DNA from: Callorhinchus milii
Lineage: Eukaryota
Assembly: GCF_018977255.1 (NCBI RefSeq)
Contig: NW_024704743.1
Span: 5,334,001-5,398,000, forward strand
Direction of reading: 5' to 3'
DNA: 64,000 bases
The notes under the pieces: model-generated
The model's database searches: none
Seen by the model: only the letters and a program-made list of their open reading frames with translations
Told to the model about the DNA's origin: nothing
Made by a program: the position numbers and the translations under genes
Shown: positions 18,765 to 42,021 of the stretch, in pieces
Position numbering within the stretch: position 1 is the stretch's first letter
Layout: each line of letters begins with the position of its first letter

Positions 18765-18956
18765 AGTTTCATTTTCCAATAAGGATTTGCTGTTCCACGA
18801 AACATTTGTCATTGTGAAACTGAAACCAATTTCATGTTTTCAAAAGTGCAAAACAGTTCTTAAAGCAAAGCTGCAAAGTATGTTCTACAATGCTCACAAA
18901 GAGTTGTGTTTTAACCGGATGAAAAGTATAATAAATTACACATCAATTTCCCGGAA
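18765..18956 (+). promoter_or_regulatory. Interferon-response cluster upstream of PARP14-like gene (two ISREs and a GAS)
   Basis: AGTTTCATTTTCC 18765-18777 (ISRE consensus AGTTTCNNTTTCY); GAAACTGAAAC 18816-18826; TTCCCGGAA 18948-18956 (STAT GAS); 335-530 nt before the ATG. Confidence 0.7.
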
Positions 18957-19225
18957 GGAAATGCAAACTTTTAAGAAAAGCTTTCAGATTTTTTTAAAAA
19001 GAAAATGGGAGTAAGATAAGAGTATTTCGGTGGGGGTGGGCTGCAACTCGTCAATGATAGAAATATGATTTCACTGTTTTCTATTCAGAAAGGATTCTGT
19101 TGAGTTATTCTGTAGTAGTTTTCACTGCATTCTAAAAAAAANTGGCTTGCCTTTCTATTTTTCTGCATTTATAATATTAACTTAATTTACAAAGCAGTTC
19201 ATTGGGTGAGTATCATATTTGTGAA

Positions 19226-19243
19226 CCGCCCACTTATATAAAT
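19226..19243 (+). promoter_or_regulatory. Possible core promoter (GC box plus TATA-like)
   Basis: CCGCCC 19226-19231 then TATATAAAT 19235-19243, about 50 nt before the ATG; transcription start not determined. Confidence 0.35.
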
Positions 19244-19290
19244 CAACTCATTCAGACAGATTCTTGAGTTCAAGTTTAGATGCCTTGAAG

Positions 19291-19471
19291 ATGGCTTGTG
19301 GAGGGATAGTTTATTCTGTCTATGTGACAGGTTTGTCACAATTTAAGAAAAGAACAGTTGAAAATAAGCTAGCTGCTTACTTTCAAAGTAAGAAGAAGTC
19401 TGGTGGTGGAGAGTGTAATGTAAATATCCTTGAAAATGGAGAGGCAATGGTAACTTTCAACGAGAAACATG
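19291..19471 (+). CDS. parp14: PARP14-like exon 1 (RRM-like N-terminus)
   Basis: AAG ATG G start; [15 protein letters not shown]...[19 protein letters not shown]...MVTFNEKH; donor G|GTATGT, phase 1. Confidence 0.88.
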
Positions 19472-22400: not shown

Positions 22401-25400
22401 GCTCAAGGTTTCGCCCCCTGCCGGGAATCGAACCCAGGTCTCTGGCTTGTGAGATGAGTGCTCTAACCATTGAGTTATAGGACTCCCAAGCATTCTAGTT
22501 GGAATATAGTTAGTACAGCAAAAGTGTATTAAAACGTCCCTCAAAATAGCACCAGCTTGCTTATGAATTCACAGGGAGTTCATGGTACCTATCATAATAA
22601 TAATAATAATAATAATCCTTGCATTTGATATAGCGCTTTTCACATCGGGAGGACATCCCAAAGCGCTTCACAGAACACACTGTAAAGTGAATTGACTGTA
22701 TATTTGTGGGTGAACGCGGCACCAATTGCGCACAGCAATGTCCCACAAACAGTCGTAGATTGAAAATAACCAATTTATTATTGCTTTGTTTTGGAGGGAT
22801 TATTATTAGGCTCTGTGTGGAGTAAGGAAACTTGGCCAAGGTTTCGCCCTCTGCCTGGAATTGAACTCAGGTCTCTCGCTTGCAAAGCGAGTGCTCTAAC
22901 CACTGAGCTACAGGACTCCACATCCACCTAGTGAGGAATCAAACCCACACTTGTTGGATGTTAAACGACAAATTAGTGACTATCCTTCTTGAGGGGAGGT
23001 AAGCGAGGTTTTTTCGGAGTTGAACTGGCTCCAAGGTGACATGTTTGGCAACCGAACGAAGGAATCGAACCAGCCCTCTGTGGTGGTCTTTGTAGTCCGT
23101 TTCCTGAACCATGCAACTACGTAGTACACCAGGGCACTGCTGATGACAGCACAGCACAGCCCGGCTCATAGGCAGGGCCTGGAAGGACAGACCAATCACC
23201 GGGTGCAGGGAATTATTCCTCTCAAAGCCAAAGTTTTCTGCCATTTACAGTGGAAGTGAAAGTAAAGTACTGTAGTTCCTTTTTTTTATAACAATGATGA
23301 AGTATTCCTTCTGCTTCTACAGCAAATCCTTGTTCTAATGCACTTTGATGTAAATGTGGGCTCACTTATAGGACAATTGGGGTTTGGACCCTGAAATTTA
23401 TTTACCAAAAAATCCAAAATGATGGCAGAAAACTTGCCACTGTGCTTCAGAACTCTGACTGGCTTCCCATGCGCTAAAACATGACCGACTTTGGGGTCAT
23501 TTGGTTGATGTTGGCGATGACCCTCAAGTCAGATATTGTTTAGATTGGGAAGCCAGTCAGCGCATGCATCTCTACTCTAATCAACGCCCCCCCCCACCCC
23601 GCCCCACCCGCTGACTCGGGCCTTCTGTGCATCCCTTGACAAACCCTTGGTTGCTCGACCCCTACACATCACCATTGGCAGCTGTGCCTTCAGTTACCAC
23701 GTCCCGAATCTCTGAAACTCCCTGCTTCAATCTCTCGCACCTGAAGACTTTTCTCTTTGACCATGTCTAAGGCAGATCCCCCTTTTCCCCGTCTAGGTGT
23801 TCAGGGCCTCAAATCCTTACAGACGTAAGGAGTGATAGGAGTGATGGGTGGTTGGGTAGGTGGAAAATGGATGGATGCCAATGAATCCATTTGACCATCT
23901 AATTTTGATAGAGGTGATTTTTCAACGTTCTCACTTGGCATCTTTCTAGATATTAATTGAAGTAATAATTTGGAATATTTTTAATTTTAGCACAAAAGTC
24001 TGTCTTGGAAAGGAAGCACTTCATTACCATTGAAGGAAAAAGCATTCCGCTAACTGTAAGCCAGGAAAGTGATAAAACCAGCATTCCTGAAGATGTCCAA
24101 GATCTTACCTCACCGGTAAGTGTAACCTCTGCAATAAATGTAAGATCCTGTTAACTTTTCCCTGTTTCATTGTTTTACTTTAGACACAGAGCATGCAACA
24201 GGCTGAACAAATTATTCTTTATTGATAATTTCTGACCTTTTTAATTCTTTTACATTTTCTATTCCACATAGCCCAGCAGAGCATTGACCTCAAGGCCCTT
24301 GTCCTCACCTTGTAGAGTAGAGAGTGATGGACTCACTGCTCCTTATCTCTTCAATCTCCTCCACCCCTGCTGTTCTGCCCATAACAAGGCCAGATTAAGG
24401 GATTGGGGGCTTCTAAACCAGATCACATTTGGGAGGCCCTTTGAACTATGCACCAAAATATGCAACAATACCTTTCTAAAATACTTTCTTGCATCACTTC
24501 ATAGTTGCAAACATGTCAACCCCACGATCAAATCTTATTGTACAGGTCAGTTTGTGCTCAGTTGACATGATTTTGATCTATTCCAGGCAGGTCAGGGCGA
24601 AACCTTGGGCAAGTTTCCTTACTCCACACGCCTAATAATAATCCCTCCAAAAAACCAAAAACAATAATTAAATTGGTCATTTTCAATCTACGACTGTTTG
24701 TGGGACATTGCTGTGCGCAATTGGCTGCCGCGTTCGCCCACAAATATACAGTCAATTCACTTTACAGTGTGTTCTGTGAAGCGCTTTGGGATGTCCTCCC
24801 GACGTGAAAAGCGCTATATCAAATGCAAGGATTATTATTATTATTATTATTATTATTTGATCTATTCTGGATCATTGTAGATCTGAGTGTGTATTTGATG
24901 AGACTCACCTTTGAGAATGAGCGTTCACATTCACAGACTGTTACAAGTCGTGTTAAGAACATACAAAAGAGCAACTGCACACATTTGGAAATGTTGACTC
25001 TACCAAATGATTCTGCTTCCATATACTCTGGCAGTTTTCTCACACTTAATACGTGACATGAAATCCAGAAAGTGCAAGAATGCAAAAATACTGTCTATAT
25101 TAAAATCTTTCAAATCTTGCCAAATAATTTTGCAGGAAGACATTACCCCAATTAAGATCAACATCAATCAAGGCTGACTCATGTTTTTTTCCTGTAAATA
25201 ATAATAATCTTAACAATAATCCTTACATTTGATATAGCGCTTTTCACGTCTTCGAGACATCTCAAAAGCGCTTCACAGAATATACTGTAAAATGAATTGA
25301 CTGTATATTTATGGGCGAAACGCGGCAACCAATTGCGCACAGCGGCGTCCCACAAACAGTCGTGGATTGAGTGACCAAATTATTATTGTTTTTTTTTCAA

Positions 25401-28400
25401 AATTATTATCCCGGAAGAACGATCCGCCAATTGACTTACAACCGGGTTCCTGCCGGGAATAGAACCTCAATTTAATTGAGGTTGCCGCAAATCATGCCAA
25501 GAATATTTTGCTCTTGGAGCTTCAAAGTCCATGTATCCATTGCAGAGCATATTGCCATCGCAGAAGATATTCAGTTGGCTGCACCTGCACTGTTCCTGGT
25601 TTGTTTCAATTTGAGAAGTAATTTCATTGCTAAAGTTACTAAAACTAAAATTCGGAAAATTCCGAAGTAAAATTCAGATTCTTTTTAATTGACTGTTTAA
25701 ATTTTCAGGTCAAGGATGCTTCTAGCAGTAAACCTGAAGGTAAGAGCAAGCAGCCGTCACTGAGAATTGGTCCCATCTATTGATGAACAAAATTAGATGG
25801 CGAATATCCAATCAATAATTTTGTCACATACATCCTGAAAAATAAAACCTAAATGGGGTAGAGGAGCAAAGGGATCTAGGGGTACACATACACAATTTAC
25901 TAGTAGTAGCAACGCAGGTAAATAAGGCCATAAAAAGCAAACCAGGCATTGGGATTCATTTCTATGGGGATAGAAATGAAATGCAGGGAAGTGATGGTAA
26001 ACTTCTCTAGAACCTTGGTCAGACCACACTTAGAATACTGTGTGCAGTTCTGGTCCCCACATTATAGAAGGGATGTAGAGGCACTGGAGAGGGGGCAAAG
26101 GAGATTCACAAGGAAGATCCCCGATCTGAGAGGTTATATGTATCAGGAAAGGAGGGTAGGGGGTGACCTGATAGAGGTCTTTAAATGAAAGGTTTTGGTA
26201 GAGTAAACATAGGGAAGATGTTTCCACTTGTGGGGGAGACCAAAACCAGGTGCCATCAATATAAAATAGTCACAAATAGATCAAATAGGGAAGTTAGAAG
26301 AAATTTCTTCACACAGAGAGTAGTGGGAATGTGGAACATACTACCCACAAGGAGTTGTTGAGGCAAATAGATTAGATGTATTTAAGGGAAAGCGAGAGAG
26401 GTACATGAGGGAGAAAGGAATAGAAGGTTATGCTTGAAGGCTTAGTTGAGGAAGGGCAGGAGGAGGTTCATGTGGAGCATAAACACCGGCATAGACCAGT
26501 TGGGCCGAATGGCCTGTTTTTGAGCTGTATATTCTAATGTATTCTAATATGCTTAGATTTTCTGAAGTCATTTGATAATTTTTGAAGTTTTTAAACAGTT
26601 TATAGGATCCCTTCATGTGGGAAGGTGTCTCGGAGCGCTGAACAATGGGATTTGGGGTCAACCTGGTTCGAAAGGGGAGGTGACCAAGGGATATTTTTCA
26701 AGTAGGATAGGTTCCTTTGTCTTTAGGTTTGCGATTTTTAAACACAGGTTAAAGTCCAAATCGTTACAAATATAGGATTAGTGGGTTTAACACCTGTTTT
26801 TTGGATCAAGTGAGACTGAAAGTTTGCCAATGAAATTTCCCTCTGCTTCCAATGGAATGCACTCTCCCTTGAAAGACACACACTCCTGAACGAATTCTGA
26901 AGAGTATTAGGTGCAGGTTGGCAAGAGCTAGCGTTGGTTTACTGCTGGAGATGCAGACACTTGTTCAGTTAGGACTGTTATAGCTTTGGATTGCAGATAT
27001 AGCAGGCGCTGAGCGGGAAGTAGGGACTGGTCTGCCCGTCCAAGTCCGGTCAGAGAGCCAGGCTGGCTAGTGTGTCATCAGCGGTGCCTTGGAGTAAGTA
27101 AGCCCACCTGGCTCAGGAACCGGGCGACTGAGACAGTCCCAGAGTAATGTGACTCGATTCTGATATTCCGTTGTCAAGCACGTCACTTTGTTACCAGCTC
27201 AGTTCAAGGCGACCCTGATTATAATGAGGATAGCATCTAAATGTCTTTTTTGTCTCGATAATCTATGGATGGGAATTACATTTCATGGGGGTAAAAAAAA
27301 TGTCTTTAGTAGAATTCTAGATTTCTGACAGACAAAATCAGCTGCTGTTCCAGTCATCCCGGAAATGTAAGTTGTGGTTGGTCTCACAGAGCATGAAAGG
27401 AAGTGAAGTTAGCAGTGCAGAATGCAACAGACTCACAATCGGAACACCCCGCCTCGTGCATAAAGCCGAATGGAGGTTCATGACCACATGGCTGCCGTCA
27501 AGTAAAGGAGTAGTGTACCAACAAGTAATCTACACTGAAAGTTGATCAAGTGCCCAAGAAGCAGAAAAAAACATTTAGTAGGCCTAGGGCTCTGCATAAA
27601 ATCATTGTGATGCTTCTGTTATTATCAGATCTTTCACAGAGTTCTAACATTCCCCTTCCTTCACCCTGTGACCTAATCATAATTATAGGTTTTCATACAA
27701 ATGATTTGCACTGCTCAGTGCTTGTAATACAGTATAATGCACTTTTATGTACAATAATGCCTTTCTTCTCGGCAGGATGTCTCAAAAGAGCTTCACGGGT
27801 TATTCTGTAAAATGAAGTGATTGTGTATTTTGCAGTGTCAGAATGTGTGTCAGAAATAACATTTTTACAGTCAGGAAAGCATAGGAGACATAGAAATTCA
27901 TTACTTTTTATATTTGTAATGTTTTGGTTCATAATTTACAGTAATCTTCCACTTTATCTCACCAATAGTTCCACTGAGCAACGTACAGAACAAAACACTG
28001 GAGGGAAGTGATCCAGTTGAATCATCGCGTGTTTGTATTAAAGTAGATACTGTAAAATTTTCAAGGGGAAACGTCGACTTTTTCATTGAATGTTGTATTG
28101 GCACATCATCTTTCCACATGCGACATACCAATGAAGCTACAACGTTTATTCTGGAATTCACCGATGACACTGGTAAGGTTAAGAAAAATGGTGATTCGGT
28201 TGTCCCAATCATTTGTGAATTGAAGTTTTTTAACAGTCGGAAGCTATGTAGAATGTCAATGGAGCAAGACATCCAAAAATGTCTTTGATGTACCACACAA
28301 AAGACTTCTTTACACGTGTCTCACACAGAGGGTTGTGAAAATGTGGAATGCACTGCTCCAGAAGGCAGCCCACATTCAATCAATTGAGATATTAAAATAT

Positions 28401-31400
28401 ACAGAGTATACAGAGATATTTTCTTACAAACAGCTCAATGGTCCATGTTCTTACTCCACAGGAGTCTCCACTCATTCCTTGTCCCTGCCATTCCACTCTC
28501 CCCTTCCCATCTGTGAAAGATCGAATCGGGGGGGTTTGGGGGGTGGTTTAGCATCTATACTATCTGATTCAACCATCGATTTAGGCACTGAGTACCACAA
28601 TCTCACTAACCTCTGCATAAAGCAGTTCTTCCTAAATTCTCTTATTTCTCTTAGTCGCTATCTTAAAGCTATAAATGCAAGGATTATTATTATTAATTAG
28701 CTGTACCTGTTGCAGCTACACTTGCAACCAAAGGATCCAATATGGAATGTAGATTTCAGTGATACCACTCGCAAACCATTATGCCAAAGACACTGTGTGT
28801 ACACCTTAAGCAAAATTGTGCGATGAGCTGTTTGGGTCATAGCTCATCAACGATAGAAGATTCAAAATGGAGTGATCTCTGCTGCTGGGGGCCATTTTGC
28901 TGTGTTCTTGCATGTCTTTCTGCGTCAAAGTCCCGCCGGGCTGTTCTTTAAGCGAGAAACTCATTTTGTCATGCTTTGTAGTCGTTTACAAAACCGAGGC
29001 CCTCCTGATTGCCGAGCGGGCCTTCAGCCACTCTGCCCCCACCCTCTGGAACTCCATCCCACAGTCCCTCTGCCTCTCCCCCTCCCTTACTTCCTTCAAG
29101 ACCCATCTCAAGATCCTCCTCTTCAACCATGCCTTCAATCACCCTCCTTCCCCCCTGCCCTCCACCCTCCCTGATCCTGACCCCCAGCTGGGGTCCAAAA
29201 CACTGACTGTCCAGTGCCTTGGGATGTCCTCTCGATGTGAAAGGCGCTATATGAATGTAATTTTGTTGTTGTTTACGCATTCAAGTCCAGCCGTGCTGTT
29301 CTTTGAGTGGGCAATTAATTTTGCCATGTTCTTGCATGCCTTTCTGCATGAAAGTCCAACGGTGCTGTTCTTTGTTCTTCAGTTTCATTTAATCGGCCTT
29401 CTCTCTTTTGTCTGACATTTTTATTTGTCCTTGAAAGGGTTGATCTTCACTTCTTAGGCATCTTTATCCCTTAAGATTAAGAAAATGTGCTTTTGGGAGG
29501 ACTCCTATGGGAGGGCTCCTGTTGGGAGGACTCGAGGGAGGCCTCAGTAAGAGGACTTCAGTGGGATGACTCCTTGTTGGGAGGACTCCTGTTGGTAGCA
29601 CTCCTGTGGGAGGACTCCTGTTGGGAAGACTCCTGCTGGGAGGACATCTTGTTGAAGTGCATACATGTATGATGAGCTTGTTTAGGTTATAGCTCATCAA
29701 TGATAGGAGATCCCTGAAAACATATATGTCCATGATATCATCCTTTCCAATGAAGTATAAATCATGTCTCTACGTCAACCGGTTATTGGCGGAAAGACAG
29801 ACATGTAGACAGACATTTGGTCTTTATCAATATAGATGAGTGAGGGATATAGATTTTGGAAGTATTTTAAGGGTATGGAAATTGGATTAAATGATCTGCC
29901 ATTATCTAATAAATTGGTGAAATGGGCTGGAGCCCTCAATTTCCTATGTTCCTACAAAATTGGGGATGTTTTGTGGAGGGTTTCATGCAGCAGGCTGGTA
30001 CCTACTGAGTGATGGTATCGGCTGGGTATATATGGTTTGAGGAAGTAGTAGAGGTAGAGTGGGGCAGTGATTTAAAAGTGAGAATGAGGATCTAGAACTC
30101 TGTTTACTGGGAGGTGAGGAGTCATTGGAGCTGGGTGAGGATAGTGGTAAGAGTCTCATAAAGTAGGGGATTTCAGTCTTGAAGACAGCTACCTCATATG
30201 GTCAAGTCACCAAGCCTGTGCCATTGGTCTGCTACCATGCTTGCCTGTCCTTCCGCTATGATCCATCAATGTGGCACTTGATTCCATTTCTACCTATCCC
30301 AGTACGTTTCATTATGTTTCATCCAATGTTTTTTCTTCCCATTCCTGCTTGGGGAACAGCAGGGCTTGGTTTTTGGTTCAGTCTTATTTCTTACCCAGAA
30401 GCTTCTCCTTTTATGGCATCATTTTCAGATATGGAGTTAGATTCCATGTGTACAAAATAATCATCCTTGCATTTGATCACGTCTTCGAGACACCTCACAG
30501 CACTTCACACAATATACTGTAAAGTGAATTGACTTTATATTTTGTGGGCGAAACGCAGCAGCCAATTGTGCATAGCAGTGTCCCACAAACAGTTGTGGGC
30601 TGAGTGACTAAATTATTATTTAATTTTTTTTAAAGGGATTATTATACCCGGAAAAGTGATCTGCCAATCAATTAACAACCGGGTTCCTATTTACTGCTAG
30701 GTGAACAGGTGTGTGGAGTAAGGAAACTTGCCAATATTTCAACCTGCCCGGGAATTAAACCCAGGTCCTCTCGCTTGCGAGGCAAGTGCTCTAACCACTG
30801 AACTACATGGACGACATTCTGAGGTTCCACTGACTCTCAGTACTCAAAAGGATTGATTTAAAATCTTTGTCAAGATTTAAAATCCCTTTAAATCCCTTCA
30901 CAATCTTGTCCCTCTTTATTCGAGGGACAAATTTAATTCAACTATTGAGTGGTGCAGTGTAAGAGTTTCTTTTCAAATTTAACTTGATTCAAAATATCCG
31001 TTACCTTGTCTTTCATTTGTGATGCATTTTTCATAGTTGCTCGAACTTGCAGTGACAACTGATCCTTGTTCTTCAGAAATATTTTGGCATCTGGGAGCAC
31101 CTTTGACAAATTATAAGTGCTTTAAATACTGTCTTCGTTCTTTTCATTCAGTTTAATAATCTTTTACTCATTTTGCAGGTGCAAAATCATTGGCAGTGAT
31201 CATAAAGTTTGGATAATTTCTATTGCAGGTGGAGTGATAATCTTAACAGCTTTGTCTTTTCTTTTCAGTGATCTTACTCTTTGTTTCCTTTAGATTTGAA
31301 CAAAGCTGTTCAAAATTTAAGCAGGAGTTTGCTGGAAATGAAAGTGACCGCCATCCAACTCCCAAGAACAGCCCAGCTTCGAGTTACTCAACTTCCGAAG

Positions 31401-34400
31401 TCCATAACACAGGATCATCTTGAATTGTACTTTGAACATGAACTCAAAGGTCTCGGCCCAGTGAAGGCTGTTTTAGATGAAGCTACACAATCAGCAATAA
31501 TAGACTTCCCGGATGCAGAAAGTAAGATATCAAAAGTCTTGGTGGTTCTGACGAAGGGTTGTGGACCTGAAACGTTGACTCACTTTCATTTCTCCATAGA
31601 TGCTGCCTGACCTGCTGAGTGTTCCCAGCGACTTCTATTTTTATGTTTTATTGTTTGTTAAACTGGTATTTCTACATTCACCTTATTTCAAATGAATAAA
31701 TTTTGAACATTTCTTTTCCAATACAGCTGTCGAGCGCATCCTGTCGAAGCCCCATTACGTGAGTAAAAATACTTTAAAAATTCATCGTTATTATGAAAGC
31801 CAGAAATTGACCGAGTTTGCAACTGAGTTTGACACTGAAGAGCCTGGACCATCTAACCAGGAGAAGGACTCTGAATCATTGGATCGTGAATCATTGGATC
31901 AAAGGAGCAAAGATGATATTGAAGTTAACAGCAACCTTGTCACAGAAGAATGCATCTTCAAAAACAAATACTATGTTCAGATTTTGAGTCAGCAAAATCT
32001 AGAGGAAAACTTTTCTGCTGTTCAGTTTCATTTTGACATGCCCAACAATGTGGTGCAAATTACAGGGAAGGAAAATGAGGTATTCAAAGTTCAGCTAAAA
32101 CTCTTCAACAAAGGAAACCAATTAGCAATCAACAAGATTCAACTATCAAAATATTTAAGAATGTTTTTGAGCGGTTTGAACAAAGAAGACTTCCTTACAT
32201 CCCTATTTTTAGACTCAAAAATTAATGTAGCATGTTCATGCGATGAGGCTGAAGATGGAGTAGTTATGTATGGTGCTTCAGAATACCATCTACGAAAAGG
32301 TGAAGAAAAGCTCAAGATGACATTTGCGGAAGACAAAACACCAATTCCAGAAGATTTTTGTTTAAACAAGCAAAATGATTTCAGCCGGTTGATAAAGGAA
32401 ACTGCAAGATCTTTGAAAGCAAATCATCACGAATTGAAGAACGTAGAGGAGAATTATCTGTTGAGCCACTTCCTGGAATCAAAAGCTAATTCAGGTGTTC
32501 CCAACTGCTTGATCCTTGTTGGATATAAGATCATTATCAATGAAGCAAAGAAATGCATAGAAAATTACATTTGGGAAAACTCGCCTTGTGAGATTGTTAT
32601 TGATGTTGAATCGCCTGGTGTCTTTGAATATGTGCAACGATTTTTTAATTTGTCAGAGGTGCTCCAGGATGCTAAAATAGAGTTTCTGAAGAACAAGGAT
32701 CAGTTGTCACTGCAAGTTAAAGCAACTATGAAAAATGCGTCACAAATAAAAGACAAGGTGACGGATATTTTGAATCAAGTTAAGTCTGAAAAGAAACTCT
32801 TACGGCAACCTGGTGCTGTTCAGTTTTTCGACAAAAACCGAGACCTGCTGAAGAAGCTGGAAAACCCATACAAATGCATCATCCACATAGCGAGTCAGGG
32901 AGAGAAACAAACAGATGTTACCGTTTCAGAACAATCACAGACCATGTCTACAATTGACTTTCTGAACAAATTTAAAATATCAGTCGTGAAAGGCAATATA
33001 ATCCTCAGTGACGCTGAAACAATTTTGCACCCAACAAACAAGTCTCTGGATTGTACTTCTGGATTGTCAAAAGCACTTGTAGATGCTGCTGGTCATGAAC
33101 TTCAACGAGCCTTAAATAAACGCCAATCTCATGTTCAAGGAGGTGAGGCCTTTATAACGAAAGCAGGAAAATTACCCTGGGAATTTATTGTTCATGTAGT
33201 TGGAACCAAGCCCCTGTCTTTAACAGAAAACCAAGAAGTTCTTAAAGCGGCCATAGTAAAAGCTCTGTGTCTTGTTAATGATAATTTTTCAAAGTCTATT
33301 GCAATTCCTGACTTTCGTCTCGGAGAGTCTGAATCCTCAGCAACAGTTATAGGGAAGGCTATCAAGGAATATTGCCAAGAAGTGAACAAACCATGTCTGA
33401 CTGATATCCGACTTGTATGTGGCGACGACAACTCTGCTAAAGCAATGAGCAAGGCTTTGAAGAAAATGATGGCGCCTGGGTCTAAGACTTCAAAGTTCTC
33501 AAACTTCATGAAATTGTCTTTCATACAAAGCAAGAAGCAAGAAACCAACAAAGAACTCAGCGCATCCAATGAGCAAACTAATGCTGCCGTGACCACAATA
33601 ATACCAGACCCAACAGGCAGCACAGGGATAATTTTTACAACTCAAGAAGGTGTACGAGTTTCTTTAATAAAAGGAAACATTGCAGAACAGAAGGTAAATT
33701 ATGGTGAAAATAATGATATATTTTTAATAAAGATAACTAATTCAAAAAGGCTCAATACAACCATAAATAAATAACAAATACTTTTTGGGGGGTCAGACAC
33801 TTGAGGAAACCCATCACTGTGCTTAAGAGTATCCAAACCAAGCTGAGATTTCCATGAATCCCACCTACATATGCAAATTCTAGAGATAGATTGTTGGAAT
33901 GGAATGTGCGCTCTCTCCTTAATCCTTGCATTTGATATAAATCTTTTAATGCCAGGAAGAAGTCTCAAAGCGCTTCACAGGATTTTACTGTAAAATGCAG
34001 TGACTGTGTATTTGGAGCCAAACATGATAATAGTAATCCTTGCATTTAATATAGTGACTTATCATGTCTTCGAGCCGCCTCAAAACAGAATACACTGTAA
34101 AGTGAATTGATTGTATATTTTGTGGGCGAAACGCGGCAGGCAATTGCGCACAGCAGTGTCCCACAAACAGACATGGATTGAAGTGACCAAATTAGTGGTT
34201 ACTCGATCCAAGTTATTGGTCACGCATGTTAGCCAATTTGCGGATCCCATAAAAAAAATCATGAAGTGATTGACCAATTTTATCTGGAGGGATTGTTGAC
34301 CAGGACCTTGGGAGAAACTGTTCACTCTTTGCTTTCCGAGGAAAGAAAGCCTAATTCCTGACAACCTTTCTTTTACAGGTTGACGCCATTGTGAACACTG

Positions 34401-37400
34401 TGTCACATGATATGAATCTTTCATACGGAGCTGCGTCTAAAGCGATTGTGCTAAAGGCTGGGGATCAGTTACAAGTGAACACAAACAATGCCAAAGGGTC
34501 CACAACATTTAAGTCTGGAGATGTTTTACCCGTCAGCACTGCAGGGTGCAAATTACATTGCCAGACAGTTTACAATACCATTTGTTGCCAGTGGAGCAAA
34601 GCTCAAGATTCTAAACCTGAAAATGTAAGTGTCCTTATTGCGGTTGTGTTTCCTATTCAATATAAGTTTCAATTCCACTGATTTATGAAAATGCTATCTT
34701 CTATAAAGCTGAACTTGAAAAAGCTTCTCGTTGCAACTCCCTTCTTGCTTGAGTAATATTTTTAATTGATCACTTTGGGAAGACGCCCTAAAGGCACTTA
34801 ACCGTAACGGCCGTGAGCTGCTGGTGGGAGCTGAAGTATAATAATGATCCTTGCATTTCAAATAATGCCTTATCATGCGGCTGAAACGTCCTGAAGTGCT
34901 TCACAGGTTTTACTATAAAGTATAGTATCTATGCATTTGTAGGCGAACTCTAACATAACATCATTATGTGTATTCATGTTTTTCACAATAGGTGCTTGAA
35001 ACAATAATCCAAAAATGCCTGGAAAATGCGCATAAAAGTCAATACAAATCAATCAGCTTTCCTGCTATCGGTACGGGAAATCTGTCATTTCCAAAAGATC
35101 TGGTAGCACAAACATTTCTTGAGGAAATAAAGAAATTCAGCAAAGCAAATTCATCCTCTTCACTTAACGAAGTGAATTTGGTCATATATGAGAAGGATCT
35201 GGAATGTTATCAGGTATGCATGTCTGTGTTTTTCTGGTATAAGTAATAGTATTGCTGTTGCATGCAATATATTCATTTTTATTGTTACAATTTAATTTTT
35301 TTTAATAAAGATTGCCTTTATCAGCAATAACATTTAAAGATCAACTATATGAAGTACTTTAAATGGGTAAATTATGTTTACATTTCAATGCTGGTATTTA
35401 TCATATAAAATGCCTTCAAATGTTTGATTCCACTTTAAAAGGAAAACATATAAGATATCTTGAACCTTTGCAGGCGTTTGAAGATGAAATGTTGATAACT
35501 TCAGGAATGCCGGCCAATGAACTGCTCATCGTAAGAGAAGAGAGGAACATCAGAAATGTGCATCCACCAACAGGAACCACAAAAGGTACAAATAAAAACT
35601 TTGATATCAAACTCTACATTGAGTCTTTGATCGAAAACGCTTTCTTCTACCTCTGGAACATTTTCTTCCAATGCCCTTTCTTTATTCTTTATTCACAACC
35701 CAATTGCAATCTTTATCTGTTATCACAGGTAATTGTCAATTGCAGCCATTTTGTTCAGGCCGATCACAGCAGTTGTTTGTGCCAGCAGGGCCCCAGACAG
35801 CAGCAGCAACAACAACAATTTACACTTATTTAGCGCCCTCCACGCCGGGCGGCAGTGGTGGGAATGATTAATCGGTAATTGACCCACTGCTCACAAATGC
35901 ACTGAAAAATCAGCTATTTCACCTCATTATAATGCGATATTGCATTTTATGGTTCCCCAAAACGAGGCCTCACTGTATAATAATGTCCCATTCACCATAT
36001 ATATCTCTGACAATGCAGTGTTACCCCAGTAATACACTGAAGTGCCAGCCTAGACAATGAGCTCAAGTACCGATGTCGGGCTTGATCCCACGATCTTCTA
36101 ACCTACAACAACCAACAAATTACACTTGTATAGGGTCCTTCACATCAGAAAGACATCCCAGGGGGCTGGACAGGCCGGGTTTTTTGGACCCAGGCTGGGA
36201 GTTGGGGTCAGGAAGGTTGGAGGACAGGGCGGTGGGGAGGGTGGCTGAAGGCACAGGTTGAAGAGGAAGGTCTTTAGACGGAACTTGAAGGAGGCAAGAG
36301 AGGGCATGAGGGGGAGGGATTGCGGGATAGAGTTCCAGAATGTGGGGGGTGGGCAGAGATGTTGAATGCCTGACCAGCAATGGTGGGGCGGGAAGTGTGG
36401 AGGAGCTGAAGAAAGCCGGTGTCTGCTGAGCGGAAGGAGCGGACAGAATGATATGGGGTTAGGAGGTCGGAGAGGTAGCAAGACCGTGGAGGGCTTTGAA
36501 GGTGAGAACGAGGGTTTGTACTCGATTCTCTGAGGGATGGGGAGCCAGTGAAACCGGGCAAGAATGGGAGTGATTGGTTCAAACCTAGAGGCAAAACCAG
36601 TAATAACTGAGCCAAATTGACAGCATGTAAATCAGCTATGTATTGTTGGGATATTTTTTTTGTGGGTTTGACATGCTATGATATTTATTGGTTTCATTTC
36701 TGTTGTATATCCAGAGCAGGTTTTCAATTCACCGGTTCCTTCTGTTACCATACCCATTGAGGACATAACTATTGAAGTATCATGCAAAAAGACTAAAACA
36801 ATATATGCAGATGCAGAAGTGGTGCTCAGGAGTGACTCCAAAGGTGAGGTCAACTTTTAATTTACTTAATTGTTTTCTGAATCCATTAATGTTACAGAGG
36901 TATAAGCAATTTCATTTCATTTCTTACAGTGAAAGGAACTGATGACATTAAGATAACAAAGGAAGGATCAACATTTTTGGTTTATTGTCGAATCAAACCT
37001 CAAGCAGACTTGGCAAATATTTTGTTTAAAGCCTTGAGTAAATGTGAAGGCAAATATTTTGGATCCGTGTGTATCCCTGTTCCTCAATACATTCTTTCAG
37101 GCAAGTATTTGTATTCTATGTTTAATAGAGTGCTTTAAGTCATATCATGATCCAGCAACTGTCCTGCCAGCCTTTGGAATTCGCTCCTCCAGCCTTCAAT
37201 CACGCTATCGGCCTTTAAATCCTGCTTAAACACCTATTTCTTCGACATGCCTGCGGTCACCTCTCCTTATAATAATCTTTGCATTTGATCACAACAGCAC
37301 TTTATCATATCTTTAAGACGTCTCAAAGCGCTTCACCAAATATACTGTAAAGTGACTTGATAGTATATTTTGTGGGCGAAACGCAGCAGCCAATCGCGCA

Positions 37401-40400
37401 CAGCAGTATCCCATAAACAGTCATCGATTGAGTGACCAAATTATTTTAATCTATTTTGAAGGAATTATTACCTCCGGAAAAGCAATCGACTAACAACCGG
37501 GTTCCTACTTACTGCTAAGTAAACAGAGGTGTGTGGAGTAAGGAAACTTGCCCAACGTTTCGCCCTGCCGGGGAATCAAACCCATGTTCTCTTGCTTGCG
37601 AGACGAGTGCTCTAACTGCTGAGCTACAGGACTCCTTGCTTGGCTTCTGACTTTGTCGCGGTGCGCAAACTAGTTGCTGCATTCACTTACCAAATACACA
37701 GTCAGTATGCTACTGTAATTCCTATGCAGCACTTTGAGATATCTCAGACACAGCGTGGTTGCGTGATGAGGGGCTAAATCAAATACTAGGATTATTATAA
37801 GGAACCCAGGAAATGAAATTTGAAGTCAACTCGTGATTTGTAAATTTCAGCTGATTTGGATTTAATTGTTTGGTGATTTTTTTCAACAGGAAAGATGCCA
37901 GACCGGGTAAAATCATTCGCTGTGGCAGTTTTGGATGCTGTTTATCAATTCACAGAAACAAAGCACACATCACTTACACAAGTAACAGTGAGTGATTGCT
38001 CACCTGAATATGTGAAAGTATTTGAAGAGCTGAAGAAAATCAAAGTAGAAAAGAGTGGCTTGGCGTCCGCAATGTCAAGTATGTTAATTCTTAAGATATA
38101 AACAGTGAAGGGAAGGATATTTGTACAATAACAATTTGCATTTATATAGTGCCCTTCATGAGGGGTAGCGTCCCAGAGAGCTTGAGAGTGGCAGAGTCTG
38201 ACACCGGGTGGGGAGGGAGGTGGCAAGACGGAGGGATTGAGAGAGAGTTTCAATAATGTGATAAGACAAGGTCAAATGCAAGGATTATTATTATTATCAA
38301 CTGGATTTGGCTGTGAATCCACTGGAGTCCAAGTTATAAAATGCCAACTGAGGAAGCTGTTGTCAAGTAAAATAGGATTAATTAACTATTTGCCATAGCT
38401 GATGTATGCTAAAAAAAGTTATGAGGTTTTGCATTAAATCACATTGATTCTTGGAATTAGTTTATTGGTTTATTCGGTTATATTGGATTTGAATGTTAAG
38501 TTCTTTCTTTGCTTCGCAGAATTGTATTCTTGGGTGAGTGGAAGCCAAGTGCCTGATGATAACCCTGAGGTGGACGAGTACGCATTCAAGCCAGTGGTCT
38601 TTCAATTCTACTTCACAAATAATGGAAATATTGACCAAGCTTGGGATGATATTCAGAAGTTAGTGAATAAAGAACAACTGGAAAAAAAAATACCGCTCAG
38701 TGTATCCCATGAAAAATTTACTGTTGATGATATTGAAGAAATAATGGAGTCTTGCAGAGTTATGCATGTATCAGTCACCATCCACAAAACACACATATAT
38801 TTGTCTGGATGTATAACTGATGTATGCTCTGCTCAGGATACTATTTTTAACGTGTGCCAAAAGATAGGAAAAAGAGAAATTATGTTACGTGAAGAAATGT
38901 TTCTCATGGAAAAAGTGTGTTGGAAATTCAAGATGGAAAATCATTGGGACAAGTTCAATCCAACTATGAATGCCCATATTGAAAAGGCTTTCAATAAAAG
39001 AGAAAATGAAGTAAAAGTAGAGACAGAAGAAGGATGCTTTTTTGTGTTTGACTTCAAAAACAACATGTGCACAGATGACGAGGGAGTCTCTGTTCGCATA
39101 TGTCGAGCATGTCCTGCAGGTAAGGAACTGACATTTATTCATTCTCTGAGTTTCTTGAGTTTTGCCTTTTTAATCCTAGTGAGAAATGCTTAACCTGCTG
39201 GAGTTCCACCCATAAGCGTATGCTGACAAGAGCAATGTGGTATCATGACCTTAACAGACATTTCGTCTAACTATTTTCGGTCACGACAACGTGCAGTAAT
39301 CCTGCGAAACGCTTTGGGATGTCCTCCCAACGGGAAAGGCGCAACACCAAATTTAAGGATTATATATAACAGTCCATCTTCATTTCAGATGACATCCTTC
39401 CAGACAACTGGGAGGATGTAGAAGACCAAACCAAATTCTCTGAAGTACTTCTGAAACCTGACTCCTCAGAATATAAAGAAGTAGCTGATGCTTTTTCGCA
39501 AACCTTAGGAGATCAAGCAAATCTGCCAACATTCAAAATTGACAGTGTAAGTCTAAATCTTTTCTGAACATACAGGCATAACGGAAATGTTGAATGTTAC
39601 TGATATTACAGTTGCATAAAGATAAATTATGATGGCTATCTTATTAAGTGGAAATATCCAGGGCGGAAATCGATGAATGAAGAAAGGTTTATTGAATGGG
39701 AATATTCCAAATCTTGAGCTGAGGTAATGGTATATGTCACCATCTGTCCCATCTCCTCTCCTATCACAGGACCCTTCTTGTTATAATCACAAATACCCTA
39801 CCTTCCCCTGCTATTTCTCCTGTGCTCCTGTTGTCAATCCTGTTGATCCACAGCTGTCCTCCCTACCCCACAGCCGATCCCTGACCAGGACCATTTTCCT
39901 GTCAAGCACTTTGGGAAGCTACCATACATGAGAGGCACTATGTAATTGCAAGTTGTTGTTGTTGTTGTTGTACGCATCGACTTCAAACATTTCCTTCTCC
40001 AACAAGACTCTCCATCCATGAACTCATCTTGGATAAGTACATCCTTGATCTCACTGAGATTCAGCTGACCCCTCTCCCTCATCAAGGCCACTCTCAAGAC
40101 TCCCTCATCAAGACTGATAACATCTTGCTTCTGGCTCCAACTTCTACAATTTCTTGGCCTCTCTCTCTCTCTCCAACTCACTGAATGTGCAATCTTGGCA
40201 TTCAGTTTGACTCAGCTCATTTCCTCCCTCACATCCATTTTATAATCCTGACCACTTTTCTGCTTTTTGCCGCATCACCCACCTCAGTCTTATCTGCCAC
40301 ATTTTTTACCTCAAAGGGTCGCCCAATACCCAAGGTGAAAAATGTTGTCTTTTAAAGCAGTGAGTTCTGGAGATTGGGAGCATAGTGGCTGAAAGCACAT

Positions 40401-42021
40401 GCGCCAGTGGTGGAGCGGAAGGTTTGAGGGATGTGCAGAAGGCCCGAGCCAGCTGAGGGATTGGGCGGGTAGAGAAATGGGTTGCGAGCAGGTTGGAGAG
40501 GTAGGGTTAGAGCTAACTGTGAGTAAAACTAAAACGTCAACTGTAAAAAGTGATAACTTGAGATAAGTGAAAAGACTAAAAAAATGGTTTCAGAATAACC
40601 TGATTTTTGTTTTCTGAAATGTGTATCAGGAGTCTATCAATTAGATTAAGATAGTTTTGTGTAGAATAGACCAGTAGAGACTGCAACCAAGCATCAACTT
40701 TTCAGTTCAGGGTTTACTACACTTGCAGTTTCTATATTTGATGATCTATTTTTAGTTGGATATTCAGATATGAAAATAATCAATGTTTGTGAATGACAAC
40801 AGATCAAACGGATCCAGAATCCCACTCTTTGGCGTCTGTATGTTGCAAAAAGAAACGAAATGAACAGACTTGCACCACTAACTCAGAATGAAAAAATCCT
40901 GTACCATGGAACATGCTCAGATGTGTGCGCTAAAATCAATGCAGATGGTTTCAATAGAAGCTACTCTGGAGCAAATGGTAAGTACAACATACGCCGACAT
41001 TCAATAGCTGTGATTATGACTATCCTCCTTGGTGGGGGGGGGGGGGGGGGGGGGTGGGGTGGGGGAAGCTTGGTCTCCTTTGAGCTAAACCGACTCCAAG
41101 GTGACATGTTTGACGATGGAATGTCAGAATCAAAACTGCCCTCTGTGGCTCAGTGTTCCACTTTCTTCAACCGTGTCTTCAGCTCCCCTCTCGACTCTCT
41201 ACCCCCTCCTCGCTCCCTCCCCTCACCCTGACCATTTCCCCTCTGCTCGGGTCCCGACCCAATGGTCCAGCGCCTAGGGATGTCCTCCCGATGTGAAAGG
41301 CGCTCTATAAATGCAATCTTGTTGTTGTTGTTGTGACTAAGCCATTATGTGACCACGTTATAGAGAATGATCCCATTTAGAATGCTCTGGATAACCTAAA
41401 GGAATTTAATGTGGAGATGTATTTGGCAATTTGTACTGGTGCTCAATAGATATCCATTGGCATTTCATCAAGAATATCAATTATTTAATCTGTGAAGTGA
41501 CAATAGCCTTGTTTCTTGTACATAGCACAATGGACAGGCAGTATCCTATGTTTTAGTGCTTAGCTTGCAGGAAGTGGGATCAGGAACGCCCAACAGACCC
41601 AAAAGTGGGGCATTTTTAATGCAGATCTTCGGTACACCAGTTGCCATTTGTAAGTCCATATATGACTGAACTCTATGCATGCAGTAAATTCCTGGCAACT
41701 GAGTATCAACCATTTTTTCCCTTTTCAGCTGTTTTTTATGGAGATGGAACATATTTTGCAATAAATGCAAGATATTCTGCAAGCGACCAGTATTCGAAGC
41801 CTGATGCAAAAGGATTCAAACTCATCTACAGAGCGAGAGTTTTAACTGGAGAGTATGGTCAGGGGCAGAAAGGCCTGAAGGAGCCTCCGCTCAAAAATCA
41901 ACAAGGAGGCCCAGACCGCTATGACAGTGTCACAGATCAATTACAATCTCCCAGTATGTTTGTTGTGTTTCAGGACAATCAAGCCTATCCAGAGTATCTC
42001 ATTCAGTTTCTTACTAAATAA
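19291..42021 (+). CDS. parp14: PARP14-like mono-ADP-ribosyltransferase, whole gene model, 16 coding exons, 1676 aa
   Basis: join(19291..19471,23991..24115,25709..25739,27969..28172,31294..31521,31727..33693,34379..34624,34992..35213,35474..35585,36715..36843,36930..37100,37890..38078,38520..39119,39389..39546,40803..40977,41729..42021). All splice phases compatible, 5031 nt. Motifs: [13 protein letters not shown] (PARP14 N-terminus), macrodomain [23 protein letters not shown]...GFNRSY...YGDGTYFA...QAYPEYLI. Ortholog versus paralog is not established. Confidence 0.9.
19538..19890 (-). mobile_element. L2 3' fragment in PARP14-like intron 1
   Basis: Reverse complement of tail CAGCGCCTTGGGACATCCTCCCGATGTGAAAG. 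Confidence 0.8.
20066..20097. promoter_or_regulatory. Intron-1 NF-kB plus IRF element
   Basis: GGAAATCCCC 20066-20075 (reverse complement GGGGATTTCC, kB consensus) followed by GAAACTGAAAG 20087-20097. Confidence 0.6.
22165..22486 (-). mobile_element. tRNA-derived SINE, full length
   Basis: Head GGAGTCCTATAACTCAATGGTTAGAGCA, B box GGTTCGATTCC, (TTA)n tail. Confidence 0.88.
22594..22919 (-). mobile_element. tRNA(Ala)-like SINE, type B, full length and young
   Basis: GGAGTCCTGTAGCTCAGTGGTTAGAGCACTCGCTTTGCAAGCGAG; near-identical to copies at 24584 and 58894. Confidence 0.92.
23455..23560. repeat. Imperfect 106-nt palindrome
   Basis: CTGACTGGCTTCCCA / TGGGAAGCCAGTCAG (15 bp perfect) enclosing GACTTTGGGGTCAT / ATGACCCTCAAGTC. 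Confidence 0.8.
23991..24115 (+). CDS. parp14: PARP14-like exon 2
   Basis: [29 protein letters not shown]...LTSP |GTAAGT; resembles PARP14 RQKVLERKNH...KLTV; phase 1 to 0. Confidence 0.85.
24385..25190 (-). mobile_element. Decayed hAT transposon remnant, interrupted by a SINE
   Basis: Minus-strand [32 protein letters not shown] (hAT C-terminal dimerisation motif), continuing IMSTEHKL...FDRGVDMFA beyond the SINE; terminus-like CAAGGCCAGATTAAG at 24385. Confidence 0.75.
24584..24855 (+). mobile_element. SINE type B, 5'-truncated, with 12-bp TSD
   Basis: TTTGATCTATTC at 24572-24583 and 24856-24867. Confidence 0.92.
25200..25465 (-). mobile_element. SINE type A, partial
   Basis: Reverse complement of Deu-type 3' part and GGAACCCGGTTG body. 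Confidence 0.85.
25709..25739 (+). CDS. parp14: PARP14-like exon 3 (31-nt mini-exon)
   Basis: [24 protein letters not shown]; needed to convert phase 0 to phase 1. Confidence 0.7.
25850..26555 (+). mobile_element. CR1 LINE ORF2 C-terminus and 3' end
   Basis: [33 protein letters not shown]...GDLIEVFK; tail GGGCCGAATGGCCTGTTT...ATTCTAATGTATTCTA. Confidence 0.9.
27969..28172 (+). CDS. parp14: PARP14-like exon 4 (RRM-like)
   Basis: CAATAG| VPLSNVQ...SSRVCIKVD...FFIECCIG...[17 protein letters not shown]; phase 1 to 1; an in-frame alternative acceptor exists at 27942. Confidence 0.75.
28697..29836 (-). mobile_element. Non-autonomous Helitron with both termini, carrying an L2 insertion and internal tandem repeats
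   Basis: Minus strand: A|TCTATATTGATAAAGACCAAATGTCTGTC... and ...GTTGCA-8nt-TGCAAC AGGTACAG CTAA|T; no TSD. Confidence 0.75.
29494..29646 (+). repeat. 15-bp minisatellite (GGGAGGACTCCTGTT)n inside the Helitron
   Basis: About 10 degenerate copies. Confidence 0.8.
30456..30812 (-). mobile_element. SINE type A, full length
   Basis: tRNA head, CTGTTCACCTAGCAGTAAATAGGAACCCGGTTG body, Deu-type 3' part. Confidence 0.88.
31294..31521 (+). CDS. parp14: PARP14-like exon 5 (RRM-like)
   Basis: CCTTTAG| DLNKAVQ...[20 protein letters not shown]...[18 protein letters not shown]; phase 1 to 1. Confidence 0.88.
31541..31650 (+). ncRNA. Minimal type I hammerhead ribozyme motif in a Penelope-type terminal-repeat fragment (PARP14-like intron 5)
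   Basis: CTGACGA 31548-31554, extra A, stem II GGGT/ACCT, GAAACGTT 31569-31576, followed by GATGCTGCCTGACCTGCTGAG...CCAGC. Confidence 0.65.
31727..33693 (+). CDS. parp14: PARP14-like exon 6 (1967 nt; KH-like region, macrodomain 1, start of macrodomain 2)
   Basis: ATACAG| open frame matching ORF 31759..33774; macro-like [19 protein letters not shown]; ends [14 protein letters not shown], phase 0. Confidence 0.92.
34379..34624 (+). CDS. parp14: PARP14-like exon 7 (macrodomain 2)
   Basis: [39 protein letters not shown]...[14 protein letters not shown]...PEN |GTAAGT. Confidence 0.9.
34992..35213 (+). CDS. parp14: PARP14-like exon 8 (macrodomain 2)
   Basis: [18 protein letters not shown]...[20 protein letters not shown]...ECYQ |GTATGC. 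Confidence 0.92.
35474..35585 (+). CDS. parp14: PARP14-like exon 9
   Basis: [18 protein letters not shown]...PTGTTK G|GTACAA; phase 0 to 1. Confidence 0.75.
36110..36570 (-). mobile_element. L2 3' fragment
   Basis: [19 protein letters not shown]...[18 protein letters not shown]. Confidence 0.85.
36715..36843 (+). CDS. parp14: PARP14-like exon 10 (degenerate macrodomain 3, start)
   Basis: [32 protein letters not shown]...SDSK G|GTGAGG; phase 1 to 1. Confidence 0.75.
36930..37100 (+). CDS. parp14: PARP14-like exon 11 (GC donor)
   Basis: TTACAG| VKGTDD...[31 protein letters not shown]; only the GC donor keeps frame with exon 12. Confidence 0.75.
37269..37635 (-). mobile_element. SINE type A, full length
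   Basis: Head GGAGTCCTGTAGCTCAGCAGTTAGAGCA, body, tail. Confidence 0.88.
37890..38078 (+). CDS. parp14: PARP14-like exon 12
   Basis: [27 protein letters not shown]...SLTQVTV...SAMS A|GTATGT; resembles macro-3 tail VAEAIIDAIEDF. Confidence 0.8.
38520..39119 (+). CDS. parp14: PARP14-like exon 13 (KH-like plus WWE)
   Basis: TCGCAG| ...[26 protein letters not shown]...FVFDFKNNM...[15 protein letters not shown]. Confidence 0.9.
39389..39546 (+). CDS. parp14: PARP14-like exon 14 (ART domain start)
   Basis: [17 protein letters not shown]...[18 protein letters not shown]...FKIDS |GTAAGT. Confidence 0.9.
40803..40977 (+). CDS. parp14: PARP14-like exon 15 (ART domain)
   Basis: [19 protein letters not shown]...NEKILYHGT...[17 protein letters not shown]. 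Confidence 0.93.
41729..42021 (+). CDS. parp14: PARP14-like exon 16 (ART domain end, stop)
   Basis: [25 protein letters not shown]...YSKPD...RVLTGEY...YDSVTD...[26 protein letters not shown]. Confidence 0.94.

Follow-up and report, generated by a model that had tools for sequence, protein, structure and literature searches.

MacroPARPs are recognised in three types, PARP9-, PARP14- and PARP15-like (PMC10221186). Macrodomain 1 is the only hydrolase among the PARP14 macrodomains and was lost in three mammalian lineages (PMC10221186), extra PARP14 copies of fish and birds could fill PARP15-like roles (PMC4038475), and parp14 is an ancestral interferon-stimulated gene in fish (10.1101/693333). 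Here a gene of the chimaera Callorhinchus milii is described that lies in a 64,000-nt stretch of forward strand (contig NW_024704743.1, here contig C2, 5334001-5398000; the window). It is probably an ancient sister-lineage gene of PARP14, the product of which is predicted to write mono-ADP-ribose with its ADP-ribosyltransferase (ART) domain and to read it with macrodomain 2, and to be unable to erase it. A preliminary description had called it a divergent, interferon-induced PARP14-like paralog with degenerate macrodomains 1 and 3, a possible writer and reader lacking the eraser.

Sixteen plus-strand exons (19291 to 42021) join into a stop-free frame, the 1676-aa translation of which is identical to database protein P0028 (XP_042187941.1, labelled PARP14 of Callorhinchus milii). 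The joints of all 15 introns were found in spliced contigs assembled from runs presumed to be RNA, as GT-AG introns were skipped exactly; expression level and start site lie outside the reach of these contigs. The joint of exons 10 and 11 (across an 86-nt intron) and that of exons 11 and 12 (across the GC-AG intron 37101-37889) were each present in 4/4 runs from 2 studies. Pfam searches of P0028 returned RRM1, RRM3, weak KH3 and KH4, two Macro stretches (110 bits), WWE and PARP (66 bits), the Macro and PARP matches in one protein marking a macroPARP; the canonical copy P0042 on contig C6 returned three Macro stretches, KH1-6 and KH8. The parts of the gene, in window positions, are as follows.

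19291..19471, plus strand: coding part of exon 1, with the ATG and the start of RRM1
23991..24115, plus strand: exon 2
25709..25739, plus strand: exon 3, a micro-exon of ~30 nt
27969..28172, plus strand: exon 4, a diverged RRM2 region (RRM2 Pfam matches are weak in orthologs)
31294..31521, plus strand: exon 5, RRM3
31727..33693, plus strand: exon 6, with the end of RRM3, the acidic linker in place of KH1-KH2, KH3 onward, macrodomain 1 and the start of macrodomain 2
31792..31944, plus strand: acidic linker of ~50 aa at the place of canonical KH1 and KH2
32965..33468, plus strand: macrodomain 1, a predicted pseudo-hydrolase
33625..35491, plus strand: macrodomain 2 with intact reader motifs, in exons 6-9 (segments 33625-33693, 34379-34624, 34992-35213 and 35474-35491)
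36715..36843, plus strand: exon 10, first part of macrodomain 3, equivalent of the canonical 144-nt exon
36844..36929, plus strand: 86-nt intron occupying the position of the 63-nt exon of canonical PARP14
36930..37100, plus strand: exon 11, middle of macrodomain 3, followed by the GC donor
37890..38078, plus strand: exon 12, end of macrodomain 3
38520..39119, plus strand: exon 13, C-terminal KH region and WWE (WWE at ~38915-39103)
39389..39546, plus strand: exon 14, N-terminal part of the ART
40803..40977, plus strand: exon 15, ART with H1556 (40905) and the NRSY arginine R1573 (40956)
41729..42021, plus strand: exon 16, ART with Y1588 (41752), M1656 (41956) and the stop, completing a histidine-tyrosine-hydrophobic mono-ART triad

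The one non-canonical GC donor and the one short 86-nt intron could suggest a decaying duplicate or a gene-model artefact with a missed exon or wrong splice. This is hardly credible: it is refuted by the open frame and the splicing of 15/15 introns, as the preliminary description had expected in denying that the gene is a pseudogene, and orthologs in nine sharks and the coelacanth carry the same gaps. Across the four runs, 18 exonic differences were seen in exons 31294-42021, 9 of them amino-acid-changing and 0 in macrodomains 1 or 3, too few to interpret.

Macrodomain 1 residues are numbered as in human PARP14, from an alignment to the solved PARP14 macrodomain 1 with G832, G924 and F926 in register; the best solved matches of the window domain were to human PARP14 macrodomain 1. 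A column census compared 136 canonical rows (database proteins, isoforms included, best macrodomain 1 per row) with 12 rows of the clade that the window gene forms with its relatives in other fishes. The loop-2 aromatic F926 was kept in 0/12 clade rows versus 133/136 canonical rows, as were G831 and N821 (0/12 versus 133/136 each), A822 (0/12 versus 128/136) and H829 (0/12 versus 126/136). The window protein carries N821H (33028), A822P, H829C and G831S (33058) and retains N824 (33037) and G832 (33061). It also has D810N, a change that alone is not diagnostic because 23/136 canonical rows carry N as well. Loop 2 of the window domain (~33307-33345) is replaced and 4 aa shorter; polar or acidic residues stand in its place in 12/12 clade rows. 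The loop is 4-6 residues shorter in chondrichthyans, whereas in coelacanth and lungfish its length is close to normal. The equivalent of G832 is E in Heterodontus and Arg in coelacanth and lungfish.

The roles of the loops and of the NAAN motif in macrodomains have been described (PMC7729036), and an Asn/Gly in loop 1 together with a loop-2 aromatic predicts macrodomain activity (PMC10221186). F926A strongly lowers the hydrolase activity of PARP14 (PMC10470015), and G832E blocks the macrodomain 1 site and serves as a dead mutant (PMC10499325). With F926 altered throughout the clade and G832 in some of its members, hydrolysis by macrodomain 1 has likely been lost; loss of ADP-ribose binding is less certain. 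The Pfam Macro score of the domain is 64 bits against a cut-off of 22, and its predicted model is a complete macrodomain (predicted local distance difference test, pLDDT, 87; template modelling score, TM, 0.84-0.87 to PARP14 macrodomain 1 structures 3q6z, 4d86 and 3vfq). In this model it has the fold of a MacroD-type hydrolase, and its sequence lacks the catalytic motifs (NAAN floor, glycine loop and active-site arene). We infer a folded pseudo-hydrolase, because the pyrophosphate-binding loop, its aromatic and the NAxN floor have been replaced. The macrodomain motifs quoted in the preliminary description were all found in place, and its verdict of degeneracy holds for the catalytic motifs of macrodomain 1; it does not extend to the fold or to N824 and G832, and D810N alone does not establish it. 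Two outcomes that would have refuted that description did not occur: canonical fish PARP14s retain the motifs, and the spliced contigs contain no additional exon.

The two kept residues, the 64-bit score and the high-confidence macrodomain fold could also mean that macrodomain 1 still binds or slowly hydrolyses ADP-ribose through N824, G832 and a rebuilt loop, the protein being a weakened writer-reader-eraser. We regard this as improbable, given that the loop-2 aromatic is absent from 12/12 rows, that acidic residues stand in the phosphate-binding loop, that the window protein has T for the second NAxN alanine, a residue described as unvarying among MacroD-like enzymes (PMC7729036), and that orthologs carry a bulky E or R at G832.

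Macrodomain 3 lies in exons 10-12, as first described, and is encoded by exons of 144, 63, 168 and 210 nt in the canonical C6 copy and of 129, 171 and 189 nt in the window gene. The canonical 63-nt exon encodes the end of loop 1 and helix a1 (the GVSKA helix), for which the 86-nt intron has no room. A short tblastn search of window positions 35586-37890 with the peptide of the canonical exon revealed no hidden exon, and no extra exon restoring macrodomain 3 was found in the spliced contigs, where 4/4 runs join directly across the 86-nt intron. The 63-nt exon has been lost from the window gene of Callorhinchus milii, and the common gap suggests the same loss in other clade members: the macrodomain 3 block measures 128-140 aa in the 9 clade rows that have it (133 in coelacanth) versus 166-174 aa in complete canonical rows, or 166-170 aa in the set of complete rows that also includes lampreys. 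Loop 2 is likewise replaced. The model of the domain (pLDDT 79.5) lacks the helix between strands 3 and 4 and best matches PARP15 macrodomain 2 and PARP14 macrodomain 3 (TM 0.70; Z 16.5 and 15.9; root-mean-square deviation 2.6 over 143-146 residues). The domain appears from this model to be a remnant that still folds but has neither helix a1 nor a pocket. A search of the ESM Atlas gave scores of <=0.85 only.

Macrodomain 2 presents a different picture, as the preliminary description had held: the motifs NTVS..G..S and FPA(I/L)GTG are present in 12/12 clade rows, and the domain scores 186-197 bits against the canonical macrodomain 2 profile in 9/9 rows. The ART motifs HGT, NRSY and GxGTYFA are present in 10/10 clade rows that have an ART, and by its sequence motifs the window protein has the mono-ART triad H1556, Y1588 and M1656 with R1573. 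The window ART scores 110 and 108 bits with PARP14 and PARP15 versus 88 bits with PARP10. KH1-KH2 are replaced by a short acidic linker in 10/10 aligned clade rows, a deletion unmentioned in the preliminary description, the block measuring 68-91 aa in these 10 rows versus 204-220 aa in 22 canonical and lamprey rows.

The variation of the third triad position (M, V or A) might indicate that the ART is also dead and the protein a PARP9-like scaffold, dead ART domains being known in the family from PARP9 (PMC13224862). We hold this to be very unlikely. No domain of the clade is better conserved than the ART (mean identity 78%; rate ratio 0.87, below), and its histidine, tyrosine and NRSY arginine are invariant in 10/10 rows, unlike the changed ART motifs of the PARP9-like gene and of a second PARP14 copy on C6. 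In that second canonical-type PARP14 (C6:10.72-10.74 Mb) macrodomain 1 is intact, but the ART departs from the HGT and YFA motifs and sits on a long branch. A 3.4-kb intron of this copy did not yield the 63-nt macrodomain 3 exon. Going by these sequence features, the copy may resemble PARP9 in having only the eraser left, and there may have been two separate losses of the exon.

Rates were compared on a fixed tree as clade versus canonical tree length in five species for which the models of both genes are complete; incomplete canonical models led to the exclusion of Heptranchias, Carcharodon and Cetorhinus. Clade length divided by canonical length was 1.77 for macrodomain 1 and 3.16 for macrodomain 3, 1.48 for RRM3, 1.01 for macrodomain 2, 0.92-0.94 for the KH blocks and 0.87 for the ART, and drops in identity with bootstrap intervals excluding zero were confined to macrodomains 1 and 3. 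The relaxation is domain-specific, although tree length and identity do not separate relaxation from positive selection. The rate of macrodomain 3 (3.01) is like that of the linkers (2.58-3.71).

Macrodomain 1 could have been repurposed, its ADP-ribose chemistry lost and its surface binding protein or nucleic acid or acting as a decoy for viral antagonists, a proposal compatible with the protein being a writer and reader without an eraser. It was raised in part by the preliminary description, and we consider it unlikely. On its side, 42/168 positions are invariant in 9 chondrichthyan rows, several of them off the canonical consensus, net charges run from +2 to +8 among 9 clade rows versus -2 to +3 in 8 chondrichthyan canonical rows, the fold is retained in the predicted model, and the inactive SARS-CoV macrodomains 2 and 3 bind nucleic acid (cited in PMC10221186). 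The charge range overlaps that of other vertebrate PARP14 macrodomain 1 (up to +6), however, an invariant histidine of macrodomain 1 is leucine in Chiloscyllium and lungfish, and the rates leave relaxation and positive selection mixed. Macrodomain 3 offers less still, with only 17/140 invariant positions and a linker-like rate, so that of the decoy or protein-binding modules first suggested only macrodomain 1, with a few clade-specific residues, keeps any claim.

The writer-reader without eraser appears to be old. A word search gave 27 matches among 7991 candidates, namely the chimaera protein, nine proteins of eight shark species at 46-51% identity and then canonical PARP14s at 21-24%. A full HMMER search gave 963 matches, of which names were looked up for 20 of the best 150; four stood apart in the best 150, at 644, 411, 339 and 302 bits, with the next at 153. 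These four were from a sawshark, a Hemiscyllium/Chiloscyllium cluster, the coelacanth (XP_014353896.1) and the lungfish (XP_043919360.1). The derived states recur in nine sharks and, within the reach of the partial models, in coelacanth and lungfish, so the state is ancient and the scope first given to it was too narrow. When the best 150 of 963 matches were sorted by profile, just four further rows leaned to the clade, all of them from lampreys or lamprey-like. Members from tetrapods, ray-finned fishes and rays were absent from these best 150 of 963 matches. The lineage may have been lost from such groups, although rays could hide inside a 50% cluster. A word search with a shark macrodomain 3 (9/680 candidates) is uninformative on absence because it missed the chimaera protein itself.

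The main tree was built from RRM3, KH and macrodomain 2 columns with trait columns excluded (24 rows), and a second tree included amphioxus and Lingula as outgroups (25 rows). The main tree contains two mirrored gnathostome clades, each with starred support of 100/100. The clade of canonical chondrichthyan and bony PARP14 excludes the window gene (starred, 100/100; 100/99 in the outgroup tree). A chondrichthyan-only duplication was rejected by the approximately unbiased (AU) test (p=1.7e-6; the 25 rows with amphioxus and Lingula). The window gene is placed by these trees in a second jawed-vertebrate macroPARP lineage that split from PARP14 before sharks and bony fishes parted, and the eraser loss is predicted from the shared motif states to predate that parting too. 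Grouping of the clade with lamprey genes is weak (86/82) and its sisterhood with canonical PARP14 is not rejected (AU p=0.25), the two values that bear on whether the duplication came before or after the lamprey split. Trees of the ART only placed the clade outside canonical PARP14 (unstarred support 84/93 and 90/91), and the AU test on the ART only did not reject a shark-only origin (p=0.187), a question settled only once coelacanth and lungfish members are added to the tree.

The window protein differs from PARP14 proper in its tree grouping, its macrodomain 1 motifs, the lack of a complete macrodomain 3 and of eight KH domains, and its location outside the PARP cluster, and from PARP15, defined by macrodomains 2-3 and ART only, in having RRM, KH, macrodomain 1 and WWE. 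Orthology to PARP10, a candidate prompted by a large-Maf neighbour, was rejected: the ART bit scores favour PARP14/15, and the genome holds a separate gene at 121.9 Mb of contig C2 that we take from its sequence features to be PARP10-like.

Other paralogs were seen alongside. A second macroPARP cluster at C6:3.56-3.67 Mb holds a long gene with a motif-less macrodomain 1 and repeated macrodomain 3-type exons as well as several short macrodomain 3 and ART copies, some of them broken; its relatives in Chiloscyllium, bichir and conger form their own clade, and it is possibly another unnamed ancient lineage with PARP15-like products. A PARP14-like exon on a 35-kb contig (C808:13039-15012) shares 96.9% identity across 549 aa with a protein that carries the label Lampetra planeri, and 53% with other lamprey PARP14-likes; it was not counted as a paralog because lamprey contamination of the assembly is the probable source of the contig. 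In lamprey protein P0165 the equivalents of N824 and G832 in macrodomain 1 are replaced, in P0164 macrodomain 1 is intact, and the C808/P0228 type has changes similar to those of P0165, so eraser loss in paralogs looks recurrent in lampreys too, as judged from motifs.

The window gene is flanked by ESYT2 and by an intronless large-Maf bZIP gene ~58 kb upstream (contig C2 ~5,294,700; L025:695-1530), which we take to be MAFA. A Pfam scan of 27 candidate neighbour frames found no domains. The PARP9-PARP14 cluster lies on contig C6 at 10.67-10.74 Mb, and its PARP9-like gene and two PARP14 copies have intact macrodomain 1 motifs; erasers are predicted to be available in trans for this reason. The remaining features of the window are listed here.

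18766-18776, minus strand, and 18816-18826, plus strand: two elements like the interferon regulatory factor element (IRF-E) or interferon-stimulated response element (ISRE)
18793-18801: gamma-activated site (GAS)-like site between the IRF-E pair
18948..18956: second GAS-like palindrome
50239-50490, minus strand: ESYT2 exon (KIAA1228 C2 domain, match to PDB 2dmg), tail to tail with the window gene

The ATG is preceded at 335-525 nt by the IRF-E-like pair, 40 nt apart, and the two GAS-like sites. Strict IRF-E matches number 5 in the 64-kb window versus 2.26 expected (~0.035 per kb); two of these precede the ATG by no more than 530 nt, and another two follow it in intron 1 at a distance of ~0.8-1.05 kb. 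A pair in the 1 kb before the ATG is unlikely to arise by chance (~0.001 by our own estimate). The second GAS-like site is weak alone because the window holds 54 GAS matches. The canonical copy has one IRF-E site upstream. One contig carries 16 extra bases before 19278, and a donor-like site lies near 19010 (18900-19290); together they hint that the IRF-E pair is closely followed by a short exon of 5' untranslated sequence. Interferon induction, asserted in the preliminary description, may be expected from these promoter motifs and the behaviour of the family.

Under the preferred reading, the ART domain would add mono-ADP-ribose and macrodomain 2 would read it, as their motifs predict, and macrodomains 1 and 3 would persist mainly as structural spacers in the KH-macro-KH-WWE-ART chain. 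Upon interferon the gene product would deposit marks that it cannot remove, and their removal would fall to the canonical copies of PARP14 and PARP9 at other loci. Mammals with PARP15 would later have reached the same division of labour, and the likeness would be convergent.

Several observations weigh against this reading. Clade-wide, N824 is kept in 10/12 rows and G832 in 9/12, human PARP14 F926A still binds free ADP-ribose (PMC10470015), and residual binding by the window macrodomain 1 is possible because it keeps both residues. Macrodomain 1 evolves at an intermediate rate (1.81), slower than the linkers, and has clade-specific invariant residues (H691, T750, K751, R818, K828, K832 and K835 in 9 rows) that a pure spacer would not need. 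The alignment behind the macrodomain 3 model contained canonical rows, and these bias the prediction towards a macro fold. At the third ART triad residue the clade's M, V or A stands against L in human PARP14. The coelacanth and lungfish models end before the ART, and that of the lungfish before macrodomain 3, so that enzyme status is outside their reach. The whole-window IRF-E count is not significant (reached in 8/100 shuffles), and the case for interferon induction is built on short motifs. For the preferred reading stand the loss of residues with published effects, the domain-specific relaxation and the conserved ART and macrodomain 2; the divergent paralog first described is upheld on these grounds, its activities as predictions.

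Eraser loss itself is already known, and the preliminary description was silent on the published inactivation of mammalian PARP14 macrodomain 1 (PMC10221186). An ancient paralogous lineage defined by eraser loss was not found described in the openly accessible literature. The accession list of PMC10221186 holds two clade members (XP_041040001.1 and XP_038654292.1); the available text of that paper contains none of 'shark', 'chondrich' and 'paralog', and the clade may stand unlabelled in its figures. Further macrodomain and PARP literature exists (PMC11080071; bioRxiv 10.64898/2026.04.23.720386), and the supplements of the bioRxiv paper could bear on novelty. If the reading is true, the lineage is a fourth macroPARP type beside PARP14, PARP9 and mammalian PARP15: a combination of predicted writer and reader, lacking an eraser, that became established in the earliest jawed vertebrates, about as deep as PARP9. 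This suggests that the opposing activities of PARP14 were divided among paralogs early on. The lineage would supply in nature what the G832E and F926A mutants represent by engineering, and it has a predicted folded macrodomain without helix a1; both can be tested directly. A bolder version, which we consider doubtful, is a fourth unnamed vertebrate macroPARP that arose in an early vertebrate genome duplication as a mirror of PARP9, persisted in cartilaginous fishes, coelacanth and lungfish, disappeared from tetrapods and ray-finned fishes, and turned its dead macrodomain 1 into a new binding surface for a partner or viral antagonist. The database calls the window gene 'PARP14' and the true ortholog 'PARP14-related sequence 1', which may mislead comparative work.

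Among known systems, PARP15 has an active ART and a reader macrodomain and no eraser (PMC4038475, PMC10221186), as predicted for the window gene. PARP15 is, however, a mammalian partial duplicate with macrodomains 2 and 3 only (PMC4038475), whereas the window gene is far older, keeps RRMs, KHs and WWE, has decayed in place and has a truncated macrodomain 3. The PARP14 of cow, polar bear and vesper bats likewise lost the catalytic residues of macrodomain 1 and has three macrodomains, but through point changes that date back 25-65 million years and affect the actual ortholog of PARP14 (PMC10221186); the window lineage is paralogous, predates the split of sharks and bony fishes, combines loop replacement with exon loss and domain deletion, and exists beside an intact PARP14. 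With PARP14 the window gene shares the order RRM-KH-macro1-macro2-macro3-KH-WWE-ART, matching exon boundaries around macrodomains 2-3 and ART, intact macrodomain 2 and ART motifs, and best solved matches among human PARP14 and PARP15 domains. It differs as a separate lineage with ~19-26% identity in KH and macrodomain 1, without KH1-2, with replaced macrodomain 1 catalytic motifs and macrodomain 3 minus the 63-nt exon, and on another contig between a large-Maf gene and ESYT2, outside the PARP9-PARP14 cluster. PARP10 resembles it in combining RRM/KH with a mono-ART and no eraser, but the window gene is not its ortholog, the PARP10-like ART gene lying elsewhere on C2. PARP9 is, like the window gene, a specialised PARP14 duplicate of jawed-vertebrate age; it kept the eraser and lost the writer, and the opposite is predicted for the window gene.

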